From assembly GCA_018896875.1 (NCBI GenBank), contig JAHILT010000006.1, positions 12,605-76,604 of the forward strand: a stretch of DNA of 64,000 bases, written 5' to 3'. Of the stretch, positions 3,340 to 57,898 are shown piece after piece; position 1 is the stretch's first letter, and every line of letters starts with the position of its first letter. The notes beneath the pieces were generated by a model, which saw nothing but the letters and a program-made list of their open reading frames with translations, was not told the origin of the DNA and ran no database searches. The position numbers and the translations under genes were made by a program. The stretch is from Patescibacteria group bacterium. GTDB taxonomy: Bacteria; Patescibacteriota; Minisyncoccia; UBA6257; 02-FULL-45-10c.

Positions 3340-3771
3340 ATGTTCATCGGAGAATACAAACATAATTTAGATTCAAAAGGTAGAATTGCTCTTCCTGTAA
3401 AATTTCGTCAAGAGATAGGAAGTAGCGTGATTATTACCAAAGGATTAGATCGCTGTCTTTTTGCTTTTACTTCTAAGGACTGGGAAATATTAGCTCAAAA
3501 ACTTGTTAAATTACCATTAGTTCAGTCTAACTCTCGTGCCTTTGTTCGTTTGATGGTGGCAGGAGCTATGTCCGTAGAACCCGATAAACAAGGGAGGATT
3601 TTAATTCCTGATTATTTAAGACAATATGCTGATTTTAAAAAAGAAGTAGTAGTAGCTGGAGTTTATAATCGTATTGAAATCTGGAATAACGATACATGGA
3701 ATGATTATAAGTCAAAAACCGAGGCCTCTTCTGATGAAATAGCTGAAAAGCTAGGAGAGCTCGGTATTTAA
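3340..3771 (+). CDS. mraZ: Transcriptional regulator MraZ
   Basis: MFIGEYKHNLDSKGRIALP N-terminus and a duplicated SpoVT/AbrB-like half (DKQGRILIP). First gene of the dcw-type cluster. Confidence 0.95.
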   Translation: MFIGEYKHNLDSKGRIALPVKFRQEIGSSVIITKGLDRCLFAFTSKDWEILAQKLVKLPLVQSNSRAFVRLMVAGAMSVEPDKQGRILIPDYLRQYADFKKEVVVAGVYNRIEIWNNDTWNDYKSKTEASSDEIAEKLGELGI

Positions 3772-3856
3772 AAGTAAACAAATGATAGTTTGTGATGGCA
3801 AAAGGTTTGTAGGGCACGCCTAATGTTGTAAACGAATCATTTGTAAAAAATAAATA

Positions 3857-4756
3857 ATGGCACATATTCCTGTTCTTTTAAATGAAGTAATAGAATTACT
3901 AAATCCAAAAAATGGCGAATTCTTTATAGACGGAACTTTTGGCGCTGGTGGTCATTCTAAAAAAATTTTAGAAATGATAGGAGAGAAGGGGCTTCTTCTT
4001 GCATTTGATTGGGACCCTTCGACAGAGCTCAGGGCGAACAAAAAAGTAGAAGAAAGAAATGAGAGTTTTTTGACAAAAAAGAATGTTATATTCGTTAATG
4101 ATAATTTTACGAGAATTAAAGACGTTCTTCAGGAAAAAAAACTACCTAAGGCAGATGGATTGTTATTAGATCTAGGATTTTCTTCTGATCAACTTAGTGA
4201 TTCCGGAAAAGGATTTAGTTTTAAAAAAGATGAACCATTAATAATGTCTTATAGTGAGAATGGATTAACAGCTTATGAAGTAATTAATTCTTATTCAGAA
4301 GAAGACATTGAAGGAATTATTAAGGACTTAGGAGAAGAAAGATTTTCTAAAAGGATTACGAAAGCTATTATAAATAATAGAAAGAAAGAACCTATTAAGA
4401 CTAGTTTTCAGTTAGCAAAAATTATAAGAAATGCTGTTCCCGGGAATTATGAAAGAAGGAGGATTGACCCAGCCACAAGGACATTTCAGGCATTAAGGAT
4501 TTTTATTAATAGCGAATTAGAGAATCTTAAAGCAATTCTTGATGACTTAGAATTAATTTTAAAAAAAGAAGGACGAGTAGTTATTATATCATTTCATTCT
4601 TTAGAAGACAGAATCGTTAAAAATTATTTAAGAAATTTAAAAAATGAAAAAAAGGTCGAACTTTTAACTAGAAAACCCATTATTGCTTCTTGGCAAGAAG
4701 TATCAAGTAATCCGAGAAGCAGATCAGCTAAATTAAGAGGTGCAATATTAATTTAA
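3857..4756 (+). CDS. rsmH: 16S rRNA m4C1402 methyltransferase RsmH
   Basis: HIPVLL, GTFGAGGHS, DLGFSS, FQALRIFIN and SFHSLEDR motifs. Confidence 0.95.
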   Translation: MAHIPVLLNEVIELLNPKNGEFFIDGTFGAGGHSKKILEMIGEKGLLLAFDWDPSTELRANKKVEERNESFLTKKNVIFVNDNFTRIKDVLQEKKLPKADGLLLDLGFSSDQLSDSGKGFSFKKDEPLIMSYSENGLTAYEVINSYSEEDIEGIIKDLGEERFSKRITKAIINNRKKEPIKTSFQLAKIIRNAVPGNYERRRIDPATRTFQALRIFINSELENLKAILDDLELILKKEGRVVIISFHSLEDRIVKNYLRNLKNEKKVELLTRKPIIASWQEVSSNPRSRSAKLRGAILI

Positions 4757-6741: not shown

Positions 6742-6766
6742 GATGGCAATATAAAAATATTATAAA

Positions 6767-6900
6767 TCCCACACATAATAAAAACTAATAAAATAAATAA
6801 ATTCTTAGATATTACAAAAATCAATGAATAAGTCGCAAAAAAATAATTTAACAACATTGACCATGAGAACTTTGCTTTTAAGTCTTTGTTATGTGTGGGA
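6767..6900 (+). mobile_element. MITE-like inverted-repeat element, copy A
   Basis: The 19-nt terminal inverted repeats TCCCACACATAATAAAAAC (6767-6785) and GTCTTTGTTATGTGTGGGA (6882-6900) pair at 17/19 positions. Full-length homology to copies at 35637-35766 and 49278-49408. Confidence 0.85.
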
Positions 6901-8135
6901 TGAATAAAGATCGATTAAAAACAAAATTAGAAAAAATAATAAGAGGACTAGCTATTTTAACCATTAAGCGATATCAGCCTGGAATTATTGCAGTTACTGG
7001 TAGTGTGGGAAAAACATCAACAAAGGAAGCCATTTATAGCGTATTAAAAGATTCTCGTTTTGTTAGAGCTACTCATGGAAACTTTAATAATGAGTTTGGA
7101 CTACCTTTAACAATTTTGGGTGATTATACAAAAATTGTAGGAAAAATGTTTTGGGTTAAAGTTATTTTCAAATCTATTTTTAGATTAATTTTTAAACTTA
7201 AGTATCCTGAAATATTAATTTTAGAATATGCTGCAGATAAGCCGGGAGATATAAAAAATCTTTTAAGTATAGCTATGCCAAGAATTGGGGTTATTACTTC
7301 AATAGGAGAGATTCCTTCTCATATTGAATTTTATAGCGGACCGGAAGCTGTATCCAGAGAAAAGGCAAAAATTCTAGAAGTTCTACCTAGTATGGGGGTT
7401 GCTGTTTTAAATGCTGATGATAAGTATGTATTAGAAATGAAAACAAGAACAAAGGCTCATGTTATGACTTATGGTTTTGGTAGTGAATCTGAAATTCAGA
7501 TTACTAATTTTGAAAATAGAATTGAAAAAGGGAAGCCAGCAGGTATTTCTTTTAAGTTAAATTATGGAGGCTCTTTTGCTCCAATTCGTATTGTTGGATG
7601 TTTTGGTAAGTCGCAAGCTTATGCAGTTGCTGCTGCTAGCGCTATTGGATTTGTCTTTGGGATGAATCTTGTAAAAATTTCTGAAGCATTACGTTATTAT
7701 AAAATGCCTTCTCAAAGAGGAGAGATAATCCCAGGCATAAAAAAATCTTTTATAATTGATGATAGTTACAATGCTTCTCCCGCTTCTATGAAAGCTGCGA
7801 TAGAATTAGCAGACTCTATGAAGTTCAAGAGAAAAATTGCTGTATTGGGAGATATGTTAGAAATTGGAAAACATACAATTGAAGCGCATGAAAATATAGG
7901 AAAATTAATTGTAAATGTTTTTGATATTTTAATTACTGTTGGTCCAAGATCTAAATTTATAGCTGAGACGGCTTCTAAAAAGGGTTTTCCAGTTAAAAAT
8001 ATTTTAAATTTTGAATTTGCTGATGATGCCAAACTTAAAGTCCAAGAAATAATTAAAAAAGGAGACTTGATTTTAATTAAAGGGTCGCGCGCTCTAGAGT
8101 TAGAAAAAGTTGTAGAAGAAATAAAGATAGTATAA
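6900..8135 (+). CDS. murF: Mur ligase, MurF-like (UDP-MurNAc-tripeptide--D-Ala-D-Ala ligase), short N-terminus
   Basis: P-loop GSVGKTSTKE, DDSYNASP, VLGDMLELG-like (VLGDMLEIG). Position after ftsI. The start is moved from the track's 6891 to the ATG at 6900, because the first ATG lies inside the repeat element. Confidence 0.75.
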   Translation: MNKDRLKTKLEKIIRGLAILTIKRYQPGIIAVTGSVGKTSTKEAIYSVLKDSRFVRATHGNFNNEFGLPLTILGDYTKIVGKMFWVKVIFKSIFRLIFKLKYPEILILEYAADKPGDIKNLLSIAMPRIGVITSIGEIPSHIEFYSGPEAVSREKAKILEVLPSMGVAVLNADDKYVLEMKTRTKAHVMTYGFGSESEIQITNFENRIEKGKPAGISFKLNYGGSFAPIRIVGCFGKSQAYAVAAASAIGFVFGMNLVKISEALRYYKMPSQRGEIIPGIKKSFIIDDSYNASPASMKAAIELADSMKFKRKIAVLGDMLEIGKHTIEAHENIGKLIVNVFDILITVGPRSKFIAETASKKGFPVKNILNFEFADDAKLKVQEIIKKGDLILIKGSRALELEKVVEEIKIV

Positions 8136-9769: not shown

Positions 9770-10081
9770 ATGAAAATTGCAGTTATAGAAACAGGAGGAA
9801 AACAATATAAGATTATTGTTGGACAAAAACTTAAAGTAGAGAAACTAGACCAAGAGATTGGCACAGAGTTTGTTTTTGATAAGGTTCTATTATTGTCTGA
9901 AGATGATAAGGTTGAAGTTGGGTGTCCTTATTTAAAGAATACCAAGGTTAAGGTAATGATAATAAAAAACAAAAAAGATACTAAAAAAATTGTTTTTAAA
10001 TATCATGCCAAGAGTAGATATAGAAAGAAAAAAGGACATAGACAACAAATTACAGAAGTAGAAATATTAGATATTAAATAA
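9770..10081 (+). CDS. rplU: 50S ribosomal protein L21
   Basis: MKIAVIETGGKQYKI...HRQ signature. Confidence 0.9.
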   Translation: MKIAVIETGGKQYKIIVGQKLKVEKLDQEIGTEFVFDKVLLLSEDDKVEVGCPYLKNTKVKVMIIKNKKDTKKIVFKYHAKSRYRKKKGHRQQITEVEILDIK

Positions 10082-14229: not shown

Positions 14230-14324
14230 TTTATAAATATTTTTTATTTTATAATTTATAATTTACATTATATCATAAAATATTGATTTATTTTATTTTT
14301 TAAATTAAGATGATTATTAGCTTT

Positions 14325-14395
14325 GCCCCCATAGCTTAATGGTAAAGCAGTTGCCTTTTAAGCAATTGACCATGGTTCGATTCCATGTGGGGGCA
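14325..14395 (+). tRNA. tRNA-Lys (anticodon TTT)
   Basis: Manual cloverleaf: acceptor GCCCCCA/TGGGGGC, D arm GCTT-AATGGTA-AAGC, anticodon stem GTTGC/GCAAT with loop CTTTTAA, T arm CATGG-TTCGATT-CCATG. Confidence 0.9.
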
Positions 14396-20372: not shown

Positions 20373-21116
20373 TTATTTTTTATTTTTAATCGACTCTTTT
20401 ATTTTTCTAAGGTATTTAATATTTTTTTCATAATCCATTCTTTTCGGTCCGATAGCTACTAAATAAAATTTATTATTATCAATATTGTAAGAATCTATTA
20501 TTACAGATAAAAACTTGCTTTCGGTAACAGGGCTTTTCTTGCCAATAAATATTTTAGGAAAATTTGAATTATTTATTATCTTTGGAAGTTTCTCTAGTTT
20601 TTCATCAAGCATCTCAAAATCTTTGGCTATTTGACAAAAATCATCTCGTTCGTTTATTTCTAAATTTTCAAAAAGTTCGTTTAGTCCCGTTTTGTAAACT
20701 CTATTTTCATCGGTTCTGTAACCAGCACTTAAGAGTTGCATATCTTGAGAAATTTTATCTAAGAAGTTTGACCATTTTTCATCATCTAAAATGTTTATCC
20801 CAACACATAATTTATGTGTGGGATTTATTAATTTATTAAAATTTTGATGAAAAATTTCTGCTGAATCAAAAAAATCTTGAACTATATTATTAACGATAAA
20901 TTGATAACCCTTATCGGTAGGGATGCGTCCTCCGGAAATGTGAGACTGACTTAAAAAACCTTGTTCAGTTAATTTATTGAATTCAGAACGAATAGTAGCG
21001 TCTTTCACTCCGAATTTATATTTATTTACAATCTTTTTAGAACTTACTGGTTGTCCTTGTTTAATAAACTCTTGAATAGCAGCTTCTAATATTTTATATG
21101 TTCTTTCGTCAAACAT
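20373..21116 (-). CDS. hrcA: Heat-inducible transcription repressor HrcA (short form)
   Basis: N-terminal wHTH (ERTYKILEAAIQEFIKQGQPVSSKKI...DATIRSEFNKLTEQGFL). Operon context, with a CIRCE element upstream. Confidence 0.8.
   Translation of the reverse strand: MFDERTYKILEAAIQEFIKQGQPVSSKKIVNKYKFGVKDATIRSEFNKLTEQGFLSQSHISGGRIPTDKGYQFIVNNIVQDFFDSAEIFHQNFNKLINPTHKLCVGINILDDEKWSNFLDKISQDMQLLSAGYRTDENRVYKTGLNELFENLEINERDDFCQIAKDFEMLDEKLEKLPKIINNSNFPKIFIGKKSPVTESKFLSVIIDSYNIDNNKFYLVAIGPKRMDYEKNIKYLRKIKESIKNKK
20798..20823. repeat. Collapsed hairpin made of the two MITE terminal repeats, inside hrcA
   Basis: TCCCAACACATAA-T-TTATGTGTGGGA. The right arm is identical (12/12) to the copy A right terminus. 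The left arm differs by one extra A. Confidence 0.7.
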
Positions 21117-35592: not shown

Positions 35593-35636
35593 TTTAATAA
35601 AATCTTGATTATTTGGTATAATAAGCATGGAATGAA

Positions 35637-35766
35637 TCCCCCACATAATTAAGACTGATAAAGTATAAATACTAGATGATGTAAAATTAATGAGTAAGTC
35701 GTAAAAAAATAATTTAATGATATTGATTATGAAAGTTTCACTTTCTGGTCTTTGTTATGTGGGGGA
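35637..35766 (+). mobile_element. MITE-like inverted-repeat element, copy B
   Basis: TCCCCCACATAATTAAGAC ... GTCTTTGTTATGTGGGGGA. Flanked by ATGAA on both sides (35632-35636 and 35766-35770). Confidence 0.85.
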
Positions 35767-37049
35767 TGAAAATAAAAAATTTTAAAAAATTAGCGACATC
35801 TAAAGATAGAAAAAAAGTGCTTGAAATTATTGAGAGCGGCTTAAATGCTATTGATACAAGAAAGGCAGTTTTGAATTCTATCAGAATTAAAAATGAAAAA
35901 TTATTAGTAAATAATCATTCTTTTTCTTTAAAAAATGCCAAGAAGATTTTAATTATTGGAATCGGAAAATGTTCTTTAGAAGCAGGTTCGGCTATGGAAA
36001 AGATTTTAGGAAAAAGATTGACTGGCGGAATTGTATTGGATGTGCATGAAGGAAAATTAAAAAAATTAAAAACTTTTACAGGCGATCATCCTTTGATGTC
36101 TCCTCGTAATGTGGATGCTACAAAGAAAATTATTAAATCTCTTTTTGGTCTTACCGAACAAGATTTAGTTATTTTTATAATTTCTGGCGGTGGCTCAGCG
36201 TTACTTTGCCAGCCAAAAGGTTTTACGTGTTTTGAAGAATCAGCAGTGGTTGAAGCTTTAATGCATTCTGGGGCAGATATTTACGAAGTGAATACAGTTA
36301 GAAAACATTTGTCTTTAGCCCGTGGCGGATTTTTGGCTAAGTACGCTTATCCAGCTCGTGTTGTTTCTTTGATTTTTTCTGACGTAGTAGGGGATAATCT
36401 TGAATTTATAGCTTCTGGTCCGACTATTAAAGACACCACTACTATAGAACAAGCTATGGACGTTCTTAAAAAATACAATATTTATGAAAAATGTAATTTT
36501 CCACCATTGAATCTTGTTGAAACTCCAAAAGATGATAAATATTTTGAACAAAACAGAAATGTTTTATTCGTTTCTAGCCAGACTGCTCTTGAAGCTATGG
36601 CAGAAAAATCTAGGGAATTAGGTTATTTACCTAAAATTCGTAAAAATGATTTAACAGGCGAAGCCAAAGAGGTTGCTAAAGAAATTATTGAGGAATTGTC
36701 CCAAGAAAACTCAGGAACTGTCTTATTATATGGAGGAGAAACAACTGTAAAAATCACAGGGAAGGGCAAAGGAGGAAGAAATCAAGAAATGTCTCTTTCT
36801 AGTTTGAGGTTTATAAAAGATAATCAAATCCTAGTTTCTTTTGCGTCAGATGGACGAGACAATTCTGATAATGCTGGCGGTATTTGTGATATAATTACTA
36901 AGAAAAAAGCTTTAAAGAAAAATCTAAATATAGAAAAGTATTTAAAAAATAACGATTCATATAATTTCTTTAAAGAAATTGGCGATTTTTTAAACACAGG
37001 AGATACTGGTTCTAATGTGGCAGACATTATAATCGCGATTAATAATTAA
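35766..37049 (+). CDS. Glycerate kinase (DUF4147/MOFRL-type glycerate 2-kinase)
   Basis: Typical MOFRL-family pattern: IIGIGKCS, ISGGGSALL and GGETTV...GKGGRNQE. The start is moved to the ATG at 35766, outside the repeat. Confidence 0.75.
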   Translation: MKIKNFKKLATSKDRKKVLEIIESGLNAIDTRKAVLNSIRIKNEKLLVNNHSFSLKNAKKILIIGIGKCSLEAGSAMEKILGKRLTGGIVLDVHEGKLKKLKTFTGDHPLMSPRNVDATKKIIKSLFGLTEQDLVIFIISGGGSALLCQPKGFTCFEESAVVEALMHSGADIYEVNTVRKHLSLARGGFLAKYAYPARVVSLIFSDVVGDNLEFIASGPTIKDTTTIEQAMDVLKKYNIYEKCNFPPLNLVETPKDDKYFEQNRNVLFVSSQTALEAMAEKSRELGYLPKIRKNDLTGEAKEVAKEIIEELSQENSGTVLLYGGETTVKITGKGKGGRNQEMSLSSLRFIKDNQILVSFASDGRDNSDNAGGICDIITKKKALKKNLNIEKYLKNNDSYNFFKEIGDFLNTGDTGSNVADIIIAINN

Positions 37050-40034: not shown

Positions 40035-40096
40035 TTCTTTAGTATTTTTAGCTAATCATATTACAAGTGAACCACAACATTTCAAATTGCTTTTCG

Positions 40097-40133
40097 CCCC
40101 CACACTTATATTAAGTGTGGGGGTTTATTTTTT
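40097..40133 (+). terminator. Intrinsic terminator with MITE-like arms
   Basis: CCCCCACACTTA-TAT-TAAGTGTGGGGG followed by TTTATTTTTT. Confidence 0.9.
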
Positions 40134-48659: not shown

Positions 48660-49289
48660 ATGAAAAAAGGAAAATTTATTGTATTAGATGGAATAGATGG
48701 CTGTGGCAAAGGAACGATTCTTAAAAAAATCGCGTCTTATTTAGTTAATAAAAATAAAATGAGCCATGTCTTATTAACTCGTGAGCCATATATCTCTGAA
48801 CATAATGCTGAAATTCGAAGAATGATGAAAGAGAATGCTAATCCTTATGATAATGCTGAAATTTTCGCTGATCTTTTTGTAAAAGATAGAAAAGTTCATG
48901 CCGATTGGATTCAAAAAGAATTAGTAGCTGGGCATCACGTAGTTTGTGATAGATATAAATATTCGACATTAGCATATCAGCAAACACAAGGTATTTCTTT
49001 GATAAAACTTATAGAAATGCATAAAGGAGTTTTAATTCCAGATCTTGCGATAATTGTGGATGTGCCTGTGGAAGAAGCAATTCGTCGCGCCAATAAGGAC
49101 AAGAATAGAAATTTTAAGGAGGTTTTTGAAAAACAAGAATTTCAGGAAAAATTAAGAACGAATTATCTTGCTTTTCCCAAGGCTTTTCCGAAAGAAAATA
49201 TAGTTGTTTTAACGGGAGTTAGTTCTGATATAATTTTTGAAAAATCTAAAATTGAAATTGATAAAATTTTAAACGAGTCCCACACATAA
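48660..49289 (+). CDS. tmk: Thymidylate kinase
   Basis: P-loop DGIDGCGKGT, DRYKYST, LID-like RR motif. The last 4 codons and the stop lie inside MITE copy C. Confidence 0.9.
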   Translation: MKKGKFIVLDGIDGCGKGTILKKIASYLVNKNKMSHVLLTREPYISEHNAEIRRMMKENANPYDNAEIFADLFVKDRKVHADWIQKELVAGHHVVCDRYKYSTLAYQQTQGISLIKLIEMHKGVLIPDLAIIVDVPVEEAIRRANKDKNRNFKEVFEKQEFQEKLRTNYLAFPKAFPKENIVVLTGVSSDIIFEKSKIEIDKILNESHT

Positions 49290-49408
49290 CAAAAACTGAT
49301 AAAATATAATATTTTAAATATCATAAAAACTGATGAATAATTCGCGAGAAAATAATTAACAACATTAATTACAAAAGCCTTACTTTTGGGTTTTTGTTAT
49401 GTGGGGGA
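49278..49408 (+). mobile_element. MITE-like inverted-repeat element, copy C
   Basis: TCCCACACATAACAAAAAC ... GTTTTTGTTATGTGGGGGA (18/19 paired). Flanks are ACGAG and ATGAG. Confidence 0.85.
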
Positions 49409-50880
49409 TGAGTAAATATTTACCAACAATAGGATTAGAGGTTCACGCTGAGCTTTGTACTAAAACAAAGATGTTTTGTGATTGCCCAAATAATCCTAAT
49501 GAAAAAAGAGCCAATATTAATGTTTGTCCAATTTGCCTAGGCCACCCCGGGGCTTTGCCAGTTATAAATAGAAAAGCTATTGAGATGGTGATTAAAATTG
49601 GATTTGCCGTAAAAGGGGAGATTAATGATAATTTTAAATTTGACAGAAAAAATTATTTTTATCCCGACCTTCCTAAGGGTTATCAGATTTCACAAAGCGA
49701 TTTACCAATAGTAAAAGGAGGCATTGTAGATATTTCTAGTTACCTAGGATATGACAGAATAATAAAGGTTAATAGGGTTCATTTAGAAGAAGATGCGGGG
49801 AAATTAGTTCATAGCGTTGATAAAGAAGGAAAAGATATCTCATTGGTTAATTTTAATAGAGGAGGGCTTCCTTTAGTGGAAATGGTTTCTGAACCAGATA
49901 TTCATAGCGCTGAAGAAGCTGTGGCTTATGCAAAAGAATTGCAATTAATTTTACGTTATTTAGGGGCTTCTACTGCTGATTTAGAAAACGGACAAATGAG
50001 AGCAGACGTAAATATATCTATTAGTGATAACGATAATCTTGGCACTAAGGTTGAGATTAAGAATTTAAATTCTTTCAATTCTATTGGAAACTCAATTAAT
50101 TATGAGATAAAGAGACAGGCAGAAATTTTGTCTAACGATAAAAATACAAAAATCATTCACGAAACTCGTGGCTGGGACGACATAAAACAAAAAACTTTTT
50201 CTCAACGATCCAAAGAAGAGGCTCAAGATTATCGTTATTTTCCAGAACCAGATTTGCCACCTTTAACTAAAGATGGATTTGATATTGAAGGACTTTCTAA
50301 AAGTATTCCAGAGCTTCCTATAGAAAAAAGAGCACGATTTAATAAGCAATACGATTTATCCCCGGATCAAATAAGTATATTAATTGAAGACAAGAAAATG
50401 TCTGACTATTTTGAGCAGTCTCTTTCAGAGTTAGAGGCGGACAATCAAAAAAAAGCTAATCTAGAAAAGATAAAATTAATTTTTAATTATTTATCTAGTG
50501 ATTTGAGAGGATTATTAATTATTAAAGGAGTCGGGTTTGATGAATGTAAAATTACTCCTGAGAATTTTGCCGATCTTATAGATATGATAATAAAAAAAGA
50601 AATTACTAGTCGGGTTGCAAAAGATTTATTGGTTAAGATATTAGAAACAGGCTCTGATCCTAGAGATATAGTTAGTCAAGAAGGGTTGGGGCAAATTTCT
50701 GATGAAGCAGGGTTGAAAGATTTGGTTATAAAAATAATCGAAGAAAATCCAAAGGCAGTAGATGATTATAGAAAAGGCAAAATACAGGTTGTTATGTTTT
50801 TAATAGGAAAGACCATGGCTATTTTAAAGGGTCGTGGAAATCCAGATATTTTGAAAAAATTATTTAAAGAAAATATTTAA
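49408..50880 (+). CDS. gatB: Asp/Glu-tRNA amidotransferase subunit B
   Basis: IGLEVHAEL, CPICLGHPGALP, NRGGLPLVE, and a C-terminal YqeY-like domain. The start is moved to the ATG at 49408, outside the repeat. Confidence 0.92.
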   Translation: MSKYLPTIGLEVHAELCTKTKMFCDCPNNPNEKRANINVCPICLGHPGALPVINRKAIEMVIKIGFAVKGEINDNFKFDRKNYFYPDLPKGYQISQSDLPIVKGGIVDISSYLGYDRIIKVNRVHLEEDAGKLVHSVDKEGKDISLVNFNRGGLPLVEMVSEPDIHSAEEAVAYAKELQLILRYLGASTADLENGQMRADVNISISDNDNLGTKVEIKNLNSFNSIGNSINYEIKRQAEILSNDKNTKIIHETRGWDDIKQKTFSQRSKEEAQDYRYFPEPDLPPLTKDGFDIEGLSKSIPELPIEKRARFNKQYDLSPDQISILIEDKKMSDYFEQSLSELEADNQKKANLEKIKLIFNYLSSDLRGLLIIKGVGFDECKITPENFADLIDMIIKKEITSRVAKDLLVKILETGSDPRDIVSQEGLGQISDEAGLKDLVIKIIEENPKAVDDYRKGKIQVVMFLIGKTMAILKGRGNPDILKKLFKENI

Positions 50881-57217: not shown

Positions 57218-57898
57218 ATGGATTACGAAAAGTTAGAAAAAGCAATTTTTTACAAATTTAAAAAAGACAGATTTCTTAACGAAGCGATGACTCATCGCTC
57301 TTATTTAAATGAAAATCCAAATTGGAAATTTTATCATAACGAGAGATTAGAATTTTTAGGAGATGCCGTTTTAGAATTAGCAGTAACAGAAATTTTATTT
57401 AGTCAATATCCTGACTATGCTGAAGGCAAGCTTACTTCTTTAAGAGCCGCCCTTGTTAATTATCAGATGTTGTCGGAAATCTCTAGGGATATAGAGTTAG
57501 AAAATTTTCTTCTTCTTTCTAAAGGGGAGTCAAAAGACACAGGAAGAGCCAGGGATGTTATTTTGGCCAATGCCATAGAGGCATTAATTGGAGCTATTTA
57601 TTTAGATGGTGAATATGAGAAAGCTAAGAAATTTATAGAAAAATTTGTAATAATTAAATTAGAAAAAGTAATAGCAGAGCAACTTTACAGAGATGCCAAA
57701 AGTGTTTTACAAGAGAAAACTCAAGCTGAGTTAAAAGCTACTCCAATTTATAAAGTTTTAGGAACAGAAGGGCCTGATCATAAAAAAACTTTTAATGTTG
57801 GAGTTTATTTAAATGATAAAATAATAGCTAATGGACGAGGTCTTTCTAAGCAAGACGCAGAAGTGGAAGCTGCCAAGAAAGCATTGGAAGAACTTTAG
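57218..57898 (+). CDS. rnc: Ribonuclease III
   Basis: Signature NERLEFLGDAVLEL and a C-terminal dsRBD (GPDHKKTFNV...AEVEAAKKAL). Confidence 0.95.
   Translation: MDYEKLEKAIFYKFKKDRFLNEAMTHRSYLNENPNWKFYHNERLEFLGDAVLELAVTEILFSQYPDYAEGKLTSLRAALVNYQMLSEISRDIELENFLLLSKGESKDTGRARDVILANAIEALIGAIYLDGEYEKAKKFIEKFVIIKLEKVIAEQLYRDAKSVLQEKTQAELKATPIYKVLGTEGPDHKKTFNVGVYLNDKIIANGRGLSKQDAEVEAAKKALEEL

Follow-up and report, generated by a model that had tools for sequence, protein, structure and literature searches.

The window, namely the whole 64,000-nt stretch of DNA analyzed in this study, carries three short non-coding elements, copies A, B, and C (Table 1), and in all three the ...GGG end abuts the ATG of a plus-strand gene, identified by Pfam as Mur ligase, glycerate kinase (DUF4147/MOFRL), and GatB, respectively. 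A first-pass annotation, made from the letters alone, had described three copies aligning end to end, with 19-nt terminal inverted repeats paired at 17–18 of 19 positions, in front of functionally unrelated genes (murF-like, glycerate kinase, and gatB) and between the flank pairs ATAAA/ATGAA, ATGAA/ATGAA, and ACGAG/ATGAG. Our direct reading bore out this description: the coordinates hold, the copies can be aligned over their full length with a mean column identity of 83%, the 19-nt arms of copies A, B, and C pair at 17/19, 17/19, and 18/19 positions, the flanks read as described, and the Pfam assignments agree on the unrelated genes. The copies are 130–134 nt long and, read from the left flank, hold frames of 6–8 codons only. 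Within the window, the 11-mer TTATGTGKGGG was found 11 times with at most one mismatch, against 0.8 occurrences expected, and a 23-nt core block three times, against 0.04 expected. The folding of copies A, B, and C yielded z values of −5.3 to −6.9 on either strand.

Table 1. Positions of the elements, their arms and flanks, and an associated promoter-like site in the window.
Feature	Position	Strand	Details
Copy A, short non-coding element	6767–6900	+	arms 6767–6785 and 6882–6900
Flank 5-mers of copy A	6762–6766 and 6900–6904		ATAAA (left) and ATGAA (right); the last A of the element doubles as the first base of the murF-like start codon
Promoter-like site	35594–35622	+	TTAATA-17-TATAAT with extended −10 TG; consensus match only
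Copy B	35637–35766	+	arms 35637–35655 and 35748–35766
Flanks of copy B	35632–35636 and 35766–35770		perfect ATGAA on both sides; ends on the glycerate kinase start codon
Copy C	49278–49408	+	arms 49278–49296 and 49390–49408
Flanks of copy C	49273–49277 and 49408–49412		ACGAG (left) and ATGAG (right); ends on the gatB start codon
Repeat-only mini element, 26 nt	20798–20823	−	reads TCCCACACATAAATTATGTGTTGGGA (minus strand); flanked left and right by ATAAA

The upstream tmk ORF enters the left arm of copy C by 12 nt, where it stops at TAA 49287–49289. The N-termini MCGM and MWGM, previously taken for artefacts, are confirmed as such, since the NCBI call of the kinase after copy B has 430 aa versus 427 aa in an element-free relative. 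A 9-mer likeness to the 3' end of tRNA-Lys, pointed out in the first-pass annotation, is also real; it consists of the T-stem ATG and the acceptor-strand TGGGGG, and we judged it to be a coincidence.

The mini element lies in hrcA and forms a fourth family member in the window, absent from the first-pass annotation. It constitutes a 30-nt in-frame insertion, which adds the residues N-P-T-H-K-L-C-V-G-I, and the HrcA encoded at locus L005 has a 10-residue gap where the window hrcA carries it. Mini hairpins of the same kind are present in L026, L020, L048, and L114–L140.

Empty Sites in Relatives

Empty sites at orthologous junctions, which had been suggested as a check on insertion, were found for all three copies. 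For copies B and C, the sites are cleanly empty in a close relative with 89% protein identity. At the copy B site (L146/L147), this relative reads a single ATGAA versus ATGAA-element-ATGAA in the window; at the copy C site (L144/L145), its tmk and gatB genes overlap by 8 nt, so that the prediction of overlapping genes split by insertion holds here. The ftsI/murF junction orthologous to the copy A site is empty in L031, and the ftsI and murF starts show reciprocal presence/absence between the window and L031. At copy C, the empty site of the relative has ATGTC in place of ATGAG (Ser codon TCT versus AGT). To account for this difference, one must assume either that a fast-evolving codon underwent two substitutions or that some mechanism brings in flanking bases. 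At the level of sequence comparison, the target duplication and the empty orthologous sites show insertion rather than an ancestral leader.

Distribution, Target Site, and Orientation

An exact-pattern scan detected family members at 75 loci. These lie in about 27 genome assemblies, almost all of them from Patescibacteria; here and for the long forms below, some of the metagenome loci may be duplicates of one another or chimeras joined at the repeat. As the search patterns prescribed 12 and 11 nt at the outer ends of the repeats, the invariance of these nucleotides is by construction; the flanks were left out of the pattern, so the flank counts were not imposed by the scan. Positions 1–19 of the repeats show 90–100% Watson–Crick pairing, which stops abruptly at position 20. 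Position 5 covaries (A-T in 56 cases, C-G in 10, and one mismatch, with T-A as a third type in L151), as do positions 14–19, with 2–4 Watson–Crick pair types each.

The flanks of the short elements are a perfect ATGAA/ATGAA in 44 of 73 cases, and the variants ATGAG, ATGGA, and ATTGA covary between the two sides. The ATGAR target duplication proposed in the first-pass annotation is thus upheld by about 130 further copies with covarying flanks and by the clean single-ATGAA empty site, while its length is less certain: the 5-bp reading is no better than one of 4 bp. A 4-bp duplication (TGAR) would flank a perfectly symmetric TCCC...GGGA, and the A of the new ATG would then come from the element. 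A 2-bp GA duplication around ATCCC...GGGAT was excluded by the cases in which ATGAG directly precedes TCCC, because the base before TCCC covaries with right-flank position 5. GIY-YIG homing enzymes cut with a 2-nt stagger, which the 2-bp reading would have fitted.

In 60 of 73 loci, the right-flank ATG is the start of an ORF that spans 60 codons or more or runs off the locus end, and in 16 loci the left-flank TGA terminates an upstream ORF. In the window, 14 of the 318 ATGAR sites are start-like. At least 82% of the insertions were observed at starts, compared with 39% under a crude tolerance null (P about 4e-14). The core has a single, fixed orientation relative to the host gene in each subfamily with strong pairwise similarity. 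The family scan, including this tabulation of orientation and start-codon position, which had been recommended, supports the earlier view of a mobile element that has terminal inverted repeats and inserts exactly at start codons.

Beyond the 5-mer, the insertion sites showed neither conservation nor a Shine–Dalgarno-like signal. There was no sign of selection for the loss of the left ATG, and single-base flank differences were spread across all five positions. Viral contigs gave 0 matches for the short form and 0 for the long form, and full-text literature searches revealed no published description of this element. Integron attC, IS110, and IS605 models were dropped, since the flanks derive from the target and the genes concerned are housekeeping genes.

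Long Forms Encoding a GIY-YIG Nuclease

A long form of 285–305 nt, with ends and flanks as in the short elements and one ORF, was found at 60 metagenome loci, and the ORF is intact and in sense orientation in about 50 of these. The 19-bp terminal inverted repeats read TCCC[A/C]CACATAAC followed by 6 variable bp; the flanks are ATGAA/ATGAA in 24 of 60 elements, ATGGA in three, and ATGAG in two. Long elements that are 90–99% identical precede apparent rpmI, rpmJ, and membrane-protein genes, identified from their N-terminal sequences only.

Sequence and predicted-fold matches identify the ORF product as an 84–93-aa GIY-YIG nuclease of the Slx1/UPF0213 type. The protein matches PF01541 GIY-YIG (E = 2e-16, 60 bits versus a cut-off of 22.6), and the residues Y13, Y24, R34, H38, and E70 are invariant in 56 sequences. 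The closest solved structures are UPF0213 BH0048 and Slx1; sequence matches were obtained with 1zg2 (E = 2e-11) and Slx1 7cq2 (E = 1e-7), and the predicted fold matched Slx1/UPF0213 with a Foldseek probability of 1.0 and TM of 0.54–0.68. In many long copies, the ORF begins at the left ATG and translates the left repeat as M-N-P-T-H-N; an N-terminus of MNPTHN or MSPTHN, formed by the flank ATG and the left repeat, was present in 11 of the 33 homologues read. The end of the ORF falls within the right repeat or shortly beyond it; usually, 13 nt separate its stop codon from the end of the element. Six long copies are pseudogenised (L108, L117, L120, L125, L129, and L138). More distant GIY-YIG mini-genes (L010, L151) have other repeats but TCCC...GGGA tips and (T)GAA flanks.

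Concerning the relationship between the two forms, short elements of the TTACAC subfamily retain collinear sense-strand coding remnants, Y-I-G and K-S-L-K-L-H-A-Q-G-L-R (best E = 0.003), and short and long forms lie side by side in loci L039 and L040. Derivation from the nuclease cassette by internal deletion is thus significant for the TTACAC subfamily only. The cores of the window copies had no significant similarity to the nuclease gene by nhmmer, and their weak matches to it were 28 in sense versus 9 in antisense. A by-eye likeness of GATGAATAAGTCGCAAAAAAATAATTTAAC to the D-A-Y-x-R-E-K-S-L-K region was rejected (nhmmer best E = 1.5). The window copies presumably derive from the nuclease cassette as well, given that ends, flanks, and orientation are common to both. 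We also considered whether an open frame is selected for in the short elements: a frame running from the left ATG to a TGA that overlaps the host ATG is open in 15 of 68, but antisense frames are equally open (13–18 of 68), so such frames are not evidence of selection.

The copies in the window have the following features of MITEs. They are short, non-coding, and multicopy, with 68 further short copies in other genomes; their terminal inverted repeats pair at 17–18 of 19 positions, and at 90–100% across the family; and the duplication is seen in covarying flanks and against the single ATGAA of the relative. The longer elements with the same ends encode the GIY-YIG nuclease only, a candidate for the mobilising protein. 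The window copies are therefore MITE-like and, as had been suggested before, non-autonomous, although the partner expected at that time was a transposase and the gene carried inside the 285–305-nt same-end elements is instead that of the 84–93-aa nuclease. No GIY-YIG gene was found in the window, where tblastn gave weak matches only (E above 0.4), or in 33 kb of the close relative, so that we can only infer a trans source in this genome.

Discussion

This study suggests that the three copies and the hrcA hairpin are very probably non-autonomous, MITE-like members of a Patescibacteria-wide family whose full-length form is a GIY-YIG cassette. The anatomy, the duplication, the orientation, the presence/absence pattern, and the near-identical copies before different genes were all observed directly. 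The elements insert at ATGAR, overwhelmingly that of a host start codon, always in sense orientation and with duplication of 4–5 bp of the target. The left duplicate retains the original host ATG, and often also the TGA stop of an upstream gene overlapping as ATGA. As the host ATG is rebuilt by the right duplicate, the host gene remains intact and can be translated by coupling. In the case of the short forms, host translation would need ribosomes that unwind the left arm, and these might come from the 6-codon upstream ORF at copy B and from the tmk read-in at copy C.

The GIY-YIG protein would be the mobilising enzyme. Its Slx1-like fold suggests that it may recognise the repeats as a hairpin or cruciform and cut ATGAR with a stagger, and the short window copies, which retain the ends only, would need the nuclease in trans. 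To our knowledge, no GIY-YIG enzyme carries out transposition, and the GIY-YIG homing endonucleases characterised so far produce 2-nt 3' overhangs rather than a 4–5-nt stagger. Going further, we tentatively propose that the 285–305-nt elements may be autonomous transposons with an 85-aa Slx1-like GIY-YIG nuclease as their sole protein, and the window copies their MITEs. The strategy of such elements would be to seize the promoter, ribosome entry, and start codon of the host and to return a rebuilt ATG through the 4–5-bp ATGAR duplication. An element of this kind would be the smallest autonomous prokaryotic transposable element that we know of.

Terminal inverted repeats that accompany a short duplication of the target are a classic hallmark of DDE-type transposition and, together with the lack of a known transposing GIY-YIG enzyme, would fit ordinary MITEs moved by a DDE-type transposase encoded elsewhere, with the GIY-YIG ORF as a passenger. 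We consider this quite improbable. About 50 long elements contain the GIY-YIG ORF alone, coding into both repeats; no longer element with these ends was found among the solo ends in 600 kb of loci; and the distant mini-genes keep the same tips and flanks despite their different repeats.

GIY-YIG enzymes are classic homing endonucleases, and the gene could in principle be a free-standing one that spreads by break repair between alleles, with the short elements as its immobile decay products. The pseudogenised long copies agree with such a process, and the ATGTC/ATGAG oddity at copy C could reflect co-conversion of donor flanks. Nevertheless, this explanation appears highly unlikely, as one deletion architecture with 83% mean column identity recurs at three unrelated genes in the window, and the flanks track the target, with ATGGA and ATGAA inside one subfamily. 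Spread would be limited to cognate alleles in the case of a homing gene, whereas the 90–99% identical copies precede different genes, and different host sites offer no homology for repair-based copying. The protein also consists of the catalytic domain alone and lacks the DNA-binding modules found in known homing enzymes.

An effect of the elements on mRNA is physically plausible. The promoter-like site upstream of copy B ends 9 nt before the left ATGAA, and its GTATAATAAGCATGAA-ATG arrangement is also present in the relative; judging from these letters, the kinase mRNA would have been almost leaderless before the insertion, and copy B would now be its entire 5' leader. In Rfam searches, only three tRNAs passed the gathering score in the window, and a permissive search around copy A yielded nothing above 20 bits. 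That the elements are selected cis-regulatory RNA leaders (thermosensor, riboswitch-like switch, or RNase III site) whose terminal helix hides the start codon would suit the stable 19–21-bp helix taking in the A and U of AUG, the leader position of copy B, the sense orientation of all copies, and a small hairpin, GAAAGC...GCTTTC, read with some covariation near the 3' end of the AAAGAC subfamily, but has only a very faint probability, given that the downstream genes are unrelated, the cores of different subfamilies cannot be aligned, Rfam has no match, folding is equally good on both strands, the arms are strictly Watson–Crick (G-T pairs only 0–6%), duplications and empty sites indicate insertion, the full-length relatives encode protein, and one member lies in frame within hrcA.

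If the GIY-YIG protein moves the elements, as proposed here for the nuclease cassette, a new nuclease family would join the transposition enzymes and define a new enzymatic class of prokaryotic transposable element. It would also be an extremely small selfish element of about 290 bp, coding even in its terminal repeats. The docking rule represents a route for parasite survival in compact, gene-dense genomes, as the host ATG is reused and then regenerated. In practical terms, the elements cause false N-termini, with MCGM/MWGM starts in mechanical gene calls as well as public ones; they separate genes that overlapped and, as hrcA shows, insert peptides in frame; and they set a 19–21-bp helix on the initiation region, in leaders that have no Shine–Dalgarno-like motif at the insertion sites. 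They are also strain-level presence/absence markers and may yield a lead for Patescibacteria genetic tools.

Comparison with Known Systems

Like the short forms, the Correia elements of Neisseria are non-coding, measure ~100–150 bp, occur in many copies, and have terminal inverted repeats and a short duplication of the target. They are often found in 5' leaders, and their transcripts there form a long hairpin cleavable by RNase III. They differ in their TA duplication, about 26-bp repeats, either orientation, and lack of start-codon docking, and no GIY-YIG partner is known for them, whereas the window family has an ATGAR target, a fixed orientation, and a nuclease-coding relative. The (A)TGAR duplication and the 19-bp repeats of unrelated sequence thus set it apart from Correia/NEMIS.

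The IS200/IS605, PATE, and REP/RAYT systems are similarly very small, with ends that form DNA hairpins, a short and specific target sequence, orientation-specific insertion, and palindromic non-autonomous derivatives. They rely on an HUH tyrosine transposase and insert 3' of a tetra- or pentanucleotide without duplicating the target, and have no terminal inverted repeats; the window family has both terminal repeats and a covarying duplication, which separates it from PATE.

The homing genes of phage T4 (Seg and I-TevI) are selfish GIY-YIG genes located between host genes and harmless to them, as in the long form. However, they encode about 200–250 aa with separate DNA-binding domains, lack terminal repeats and target duplication, and spread from allele to allele by break repair, whereas the long-form copies precede unrelated genes. 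The 84–93-aa long-form protein is only weakly similar to I-TevI (E = 0.04, Foldseek probability 0.41).

Slx1 and UPF0213 (YhbQ, BH0048, and EF2693) are the best matches of the nuclease in both sequence and fold, and Slx1 cuts branched and hairpin-like DNA. Unlike the long form, these proteins are cellular repair enzymes or uncharacterised, and neither a mobile context nor repeats nor docking on start codons have been reported for them; Slx1 additionally has a RING/PHD domain and depends on Slx4.

Finally, no partner enzyme is known for the Rickettsia palindromic elements, which do not favour start codons and are unrelated in sequence; they are comparable in being short palindromes that persist in frame in coding genes, as the 30-nt insert does in hrcA.

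Results

The first-pass annotation had read the three inverted repeats on start codons (copies A, B and C) as mobile elements. This reading is essentially right, and we rate them as elements of the MITE kind. All three full-length copies were confirmed, aligning end to end with a mean column identity of 83%; each has 19-nt arms, with pairing read from the sequence, and a right end of ...GGG directly followed by the ATG of a plus-strand gene. According to Pfam, the downstream genes encode a Mur ligase, a DUF4147/MOFRL glycerate kinase and GatB, and the upstream genes a PBP transpeptidase, ThyX and thymidylate kinase. In the window, 11 occurrences of the repeat 11-mer were counted against 0.8 expected, and 3 of a 23-nt core block against 0.04. 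The copies fold to a long terminal helix on either strand (z -5.3 to -6.9), and an Rfam search returned no family matching them.

Features of the element family in the window and in other loci
Feature	Location	Strand	Remarks
Copy A	6767-6900	+	Ends on murF-like start; 17/19 arm positions paired
Copy B	35637-35766	+	Ends on glycerate kinase start; 17/19 arm positions paired
Copy C	49278-49408	+	Ends on gatB start; 18/19 arm positions paired
Fourth family member, repeat-only palindrome in hrcA	20798-20823	minus	Found by repeat search
False-start ATG in right repeat	35757-35768 and 6891-6902		ATGTGGGGGATG
GatB codon 2	Window 49408-49413 vs L144 (relative) 10001-10006		Ser AGT vs TCT
Long element	L039 5257-5551		Found among solo repeat ends of fetched loci
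Long element	L040 5510-5796		Found among solo repeat ends of fetched loci

The ATG within the right repeat acts as a false start for gene callers, so the N-termini MCGM and MWGM are artefacts, as had been proposed: the NCBI glycerate kinase has 430 aa vs 427 aa in an element-free relative, and the ORF lister shows a like false start at murF and gatB. The identity of the right-arm 9-mer ATGTGGGGG with the tRNA-Lys end (14385-14393; 0.04 expected per window) was likewise reproduced, the tRNA part being the T-stem ATG plus the acceptor strand TGGGGG. The insertion in hrcA reads ATAAA-TCCCACACATAAATTATGTGTTGGG-ATAAA on the minus strand; its 30 extra nt keep the frame and encode N-P-T-H-K-L-C-V-G-I, and the HrcA of another locus (L005) has a 10-residue gap there. 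Elsewhere in the window (40096-40124), the stem of a terminator-like hairpin, CCCCCACACTTA-tat-TAAGTGTGGGGG with a T run behind it, is similar to the element repeat (CCCCCACATAA); the counterpart of this hairpin in the relative (L146, about 14250-14275) is a different terminator hairpin. The window hairpin may be a repeat-only remnant that was co-opted, or the likeness may be coincidental.

The relative, represented by a JGI contig of 445 kb, has GatB and glycerate kinase 89% identical to those of the window. At the copy B site it reads ...GTATAATAAGCATGAA-ATGAA-AATAAAAAAT, where the window has ...GCATGGA-ATGAA-element-ATGAA-AATAAAAAAT; this is a clean empty site with the 5-mer present once. 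At the copy C site the relative lacks the element in almost identical sequence surroundings, and its tmk and gatB overlap by 8 nt, in agreement with the split overlap predicted from the window, in which a TAA of the left repeat now terminates tmk. The 5-mer there is ATGTC in the relative vs GAG in both flank copies of the window. Because relatives vary greatly at GatB codon 2 (S, T, H, P, N, A), two substitutions before insertion, amounting to a serine codon switch, are plausible; alternatively, the flanking bases may have been imported by the insertion. In L031, a locus about 69% identical in DNA, the ftsI|murF junction is empty where the window has copy A, and a short element occupies the ftsI start, a site without insertion in the window. 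No element copy was found in the relative's 33 kb syntenic with window 25.7-59 kb.

One genome per species was scanned for short elements with the pattern TCCCMCACATAA-N(90-120)-TTATGTGKGGG, which leaves the flanks free. This gave 75 loci in about 27 assemblies, with record titles naming Saccharibacteria, Paceibacterota, Sungiibacteriota and Azam-, Yanofsky-, Wolfe- and Harrisonbacteria, and a few matches from other phyla (Binatia, Cryomorphaceae). Perfect ATGAA stands on both sides in 44 of 73 elements, and the variant flanks ATGAG, ATGGA and ATTGA agree left and right. In 60/73 the right-flank ATG starts an ORF that either reaches 60 codons or more or runs past the end of the locus, and in 16 loci the left TGA is the stop of the upstream ORF, marking a split ATGA overlap. 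Cores cannot be aligned from one subfamily to another; each subfamily with strong pairwise similarity has a single core orientation relative to the downstream gene (forward scores up to 156 vs reverse 20-30), apparent exceptions being mis-assigned sense. The Binatia (L013, L032, L044, L050, L052) and Cryomorphaceae (L027) matches are 136-142-nt palindromic elements with TCCCACACATAAG... ends and without ATGAA. Since their palindrome continues into the flanks (e.g., CTAGTGTCCTG|TCCC...), they probably belong to a different family outside Patescibacteria.

The long elements of L039 and L040 have the same ends as the short forms, ATGAA/ATGAG flanks and one ORF each, matching PF01541 GIY-YIG (E = 2e-16). 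The L040 ORF begins at the left-flank ATG, reads through the repeat as M-S-P-T-H-N-L and stops at a TAA in the inner right repeat. In a protein search, 94 homologues of about 85-93 aa were found; 11 of the 33 with sequences read start with MNPTHN or MSPTHN, and a few homologues end in ...KLCGG or ...KLCVG, matching right-repeat read-through (AAG TTA TGT GTG GGA TGA). The DNA of L134 has such read-through, and a TGA that overlaps the host ATG serves as its stop. Metagenomes scanned with a 250-280-nt gap yielded 60 loci, about 50 with an intact sense-strand GIY-YIG ORF and 6 pseudogenised; the stop codon ends 13 nt short of the element end in 32, and the flanks are perfect ATGAA in 24, ATGGA in three and ATGAG in two. 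Sampling via the protein instead of the repeat agrees with this picture. The P0069 element lies on an ATGA overlap with pilM directly downstream, the P0078 element is on the mazG start with ATGGA flanks, and P0087, a homologue with 47% identity, is encoded by a free-standing gene whose repeats are only vestigial. In L010, a more distantly related GIY-YIG mini-gene lies between different repeats (TCCCGTTAGAGCC), which keep the TCCC...GGGA tips and a TGAA right flank. L048 has a GIY-YIG gene (3887-4141, minus; P0023, 100% identical) at which no terminal repeats can be recognised; a short element (3742-3864) follows directly downstream, and the pair could be a rearranged or decaying composite.

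Long elements 90-99% identical precede three different genes, namely rpmI, rpmJ and a membrane protein gene as read from N-terminal sequences. A tandem, repeat-only mini hairpin that shares the ATGAA precedes several long copies; therefore, a regenerated target can evidently be re-hit. Tandem and nested arrays were seen among L133, L114, L121, L132, L140, L120, L008, L046 and L063; they comprise the form ATGAA-26-nt mini hairpin-TGAA-full-length element-ATGAA and short elements nested within one another. L133 and L114 have a common left flank and different right flanks; either the copies have recombined or the assembly is chimeric at this repeat.

Two unrelated observations were also made. Upstream of the relative's glycerate kinase (L146 9918-9984), a ~66-nt inverted-repeat element (CCAGGTAGTGTAACTTCGAG...CTCGAAGTTCTACTAACCTGG) just upstream of a GTATAAT -10 box is a second, unrelated MITE-like family of the same lineage; the window has nothing at the matching position. 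The GatB homologues P0118 and P0158 (638-658 aa) carry a PF13366 (GxxExxY, PD-(D/E)XK-like) domain inserted in frame mid-protein, which resembles a further type of small nuclease gene residing in a housekeeping gene.

Discussion

Repeat positions 1-19 are 90-100% Watson-Crick paired, and position 20 falls to about 20%. Because the search pattern fixes the outer 12 and 11 nt, their invariance carries no evidential weight; position 5, free in the pattern on both sides, covaries (A-T 56, C-G 10, one mismatch; T-A in L151). Positions 14-19 each show 2-4 Watson-Crick pair types, and G-T pairs make up 0-6% of the arms. This pattern fits arms required to match as DNA, or copied from one another, better than an RNA helix. 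The duplication must be at least 3 bp because 5-mer positions 3-5 covary. A 5-bp duplication (ATGAR) around TCCC...GGG and a 4-bp one (TGAR) around a perfectly symmetric TCCC...GGGA fit equally well; with the 4-bp reading, the new ATG receives its A from the end of the element. The ATGAG|TCCC cases rule out a 2-bp GA duplication.

Among 318 ATGAR sites in the window, 14 are start-like and 22 intergenic. If these two classes alone were tolerated, and equally, 39% of insertions would fall at starts; at least 82% do (P about 4e-14, a rough value because window composition stands in for all genomes). As short elements need no expression, their start-codon and sense bias points to an insertion machinery that targets such sites, and not to selection alone. 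Outside the 5-mer, no sequence motif was seen at the insertion sites.

The TTACAC-subfamily short elements retain collinear sense-strand remnants of the Y-I-G and K-S-L-K-L-H-A-Q-G-L-R regions (best E = 0.003) and are internal-deletion derivatives of the long form. The window subfamily (inner repeat AAAGAC/AAAAAC) has no significant similarity to the GIY-YIG gene; its placement in the family rests on common ends, flanks, orientation and short/long co-occurrence in L039 and L040.

Concerning expression, copy B is preceded by a promoter-like site (extended -10) that ends 9 nt upstream of the left ATGAA, so the glycerate kinase mRNA was presumably nearly leaderless before insertion. The transcript would now begin with a 6-codon ORF (M-N-P-P-H-N) and a 21-bp helix including the A and U of the real AUG. 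Ribosomes on this ORF, or at copy C those ending tmk inside the left arm, could open the helix; copy A has neither short ORF nor read-in, the ftsI stop lying 25 nt upstream. A candidate RNase III site is physically reasonable given the helix length, and the gene is present (the L144 ortholog of ORF 57218-57898 is annotated as RNase III).

Beyond the first reading, this study adds the coding partner of the elements and the logic of their docking site. In the open-access literature, we found no description of terminal-repeat-bounded GIY-YIG mini-genes, start-codon docking or MITEs in Patescibacteria. There is a substantial, though less than even, chance that the parent element is a new enzymatic class of transposon. 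Compared with solved structures, a 56-sequence profile of its protein matched UPF0213 BH0048 (E = 2e-11) and Slx1 (E = 1e-7), and the AlphaFold model (pLDDT 86) likewise predicts a fold matching Slx1 and BH0048 (probability 1.0), with UvrC and I-TevI far weaker.
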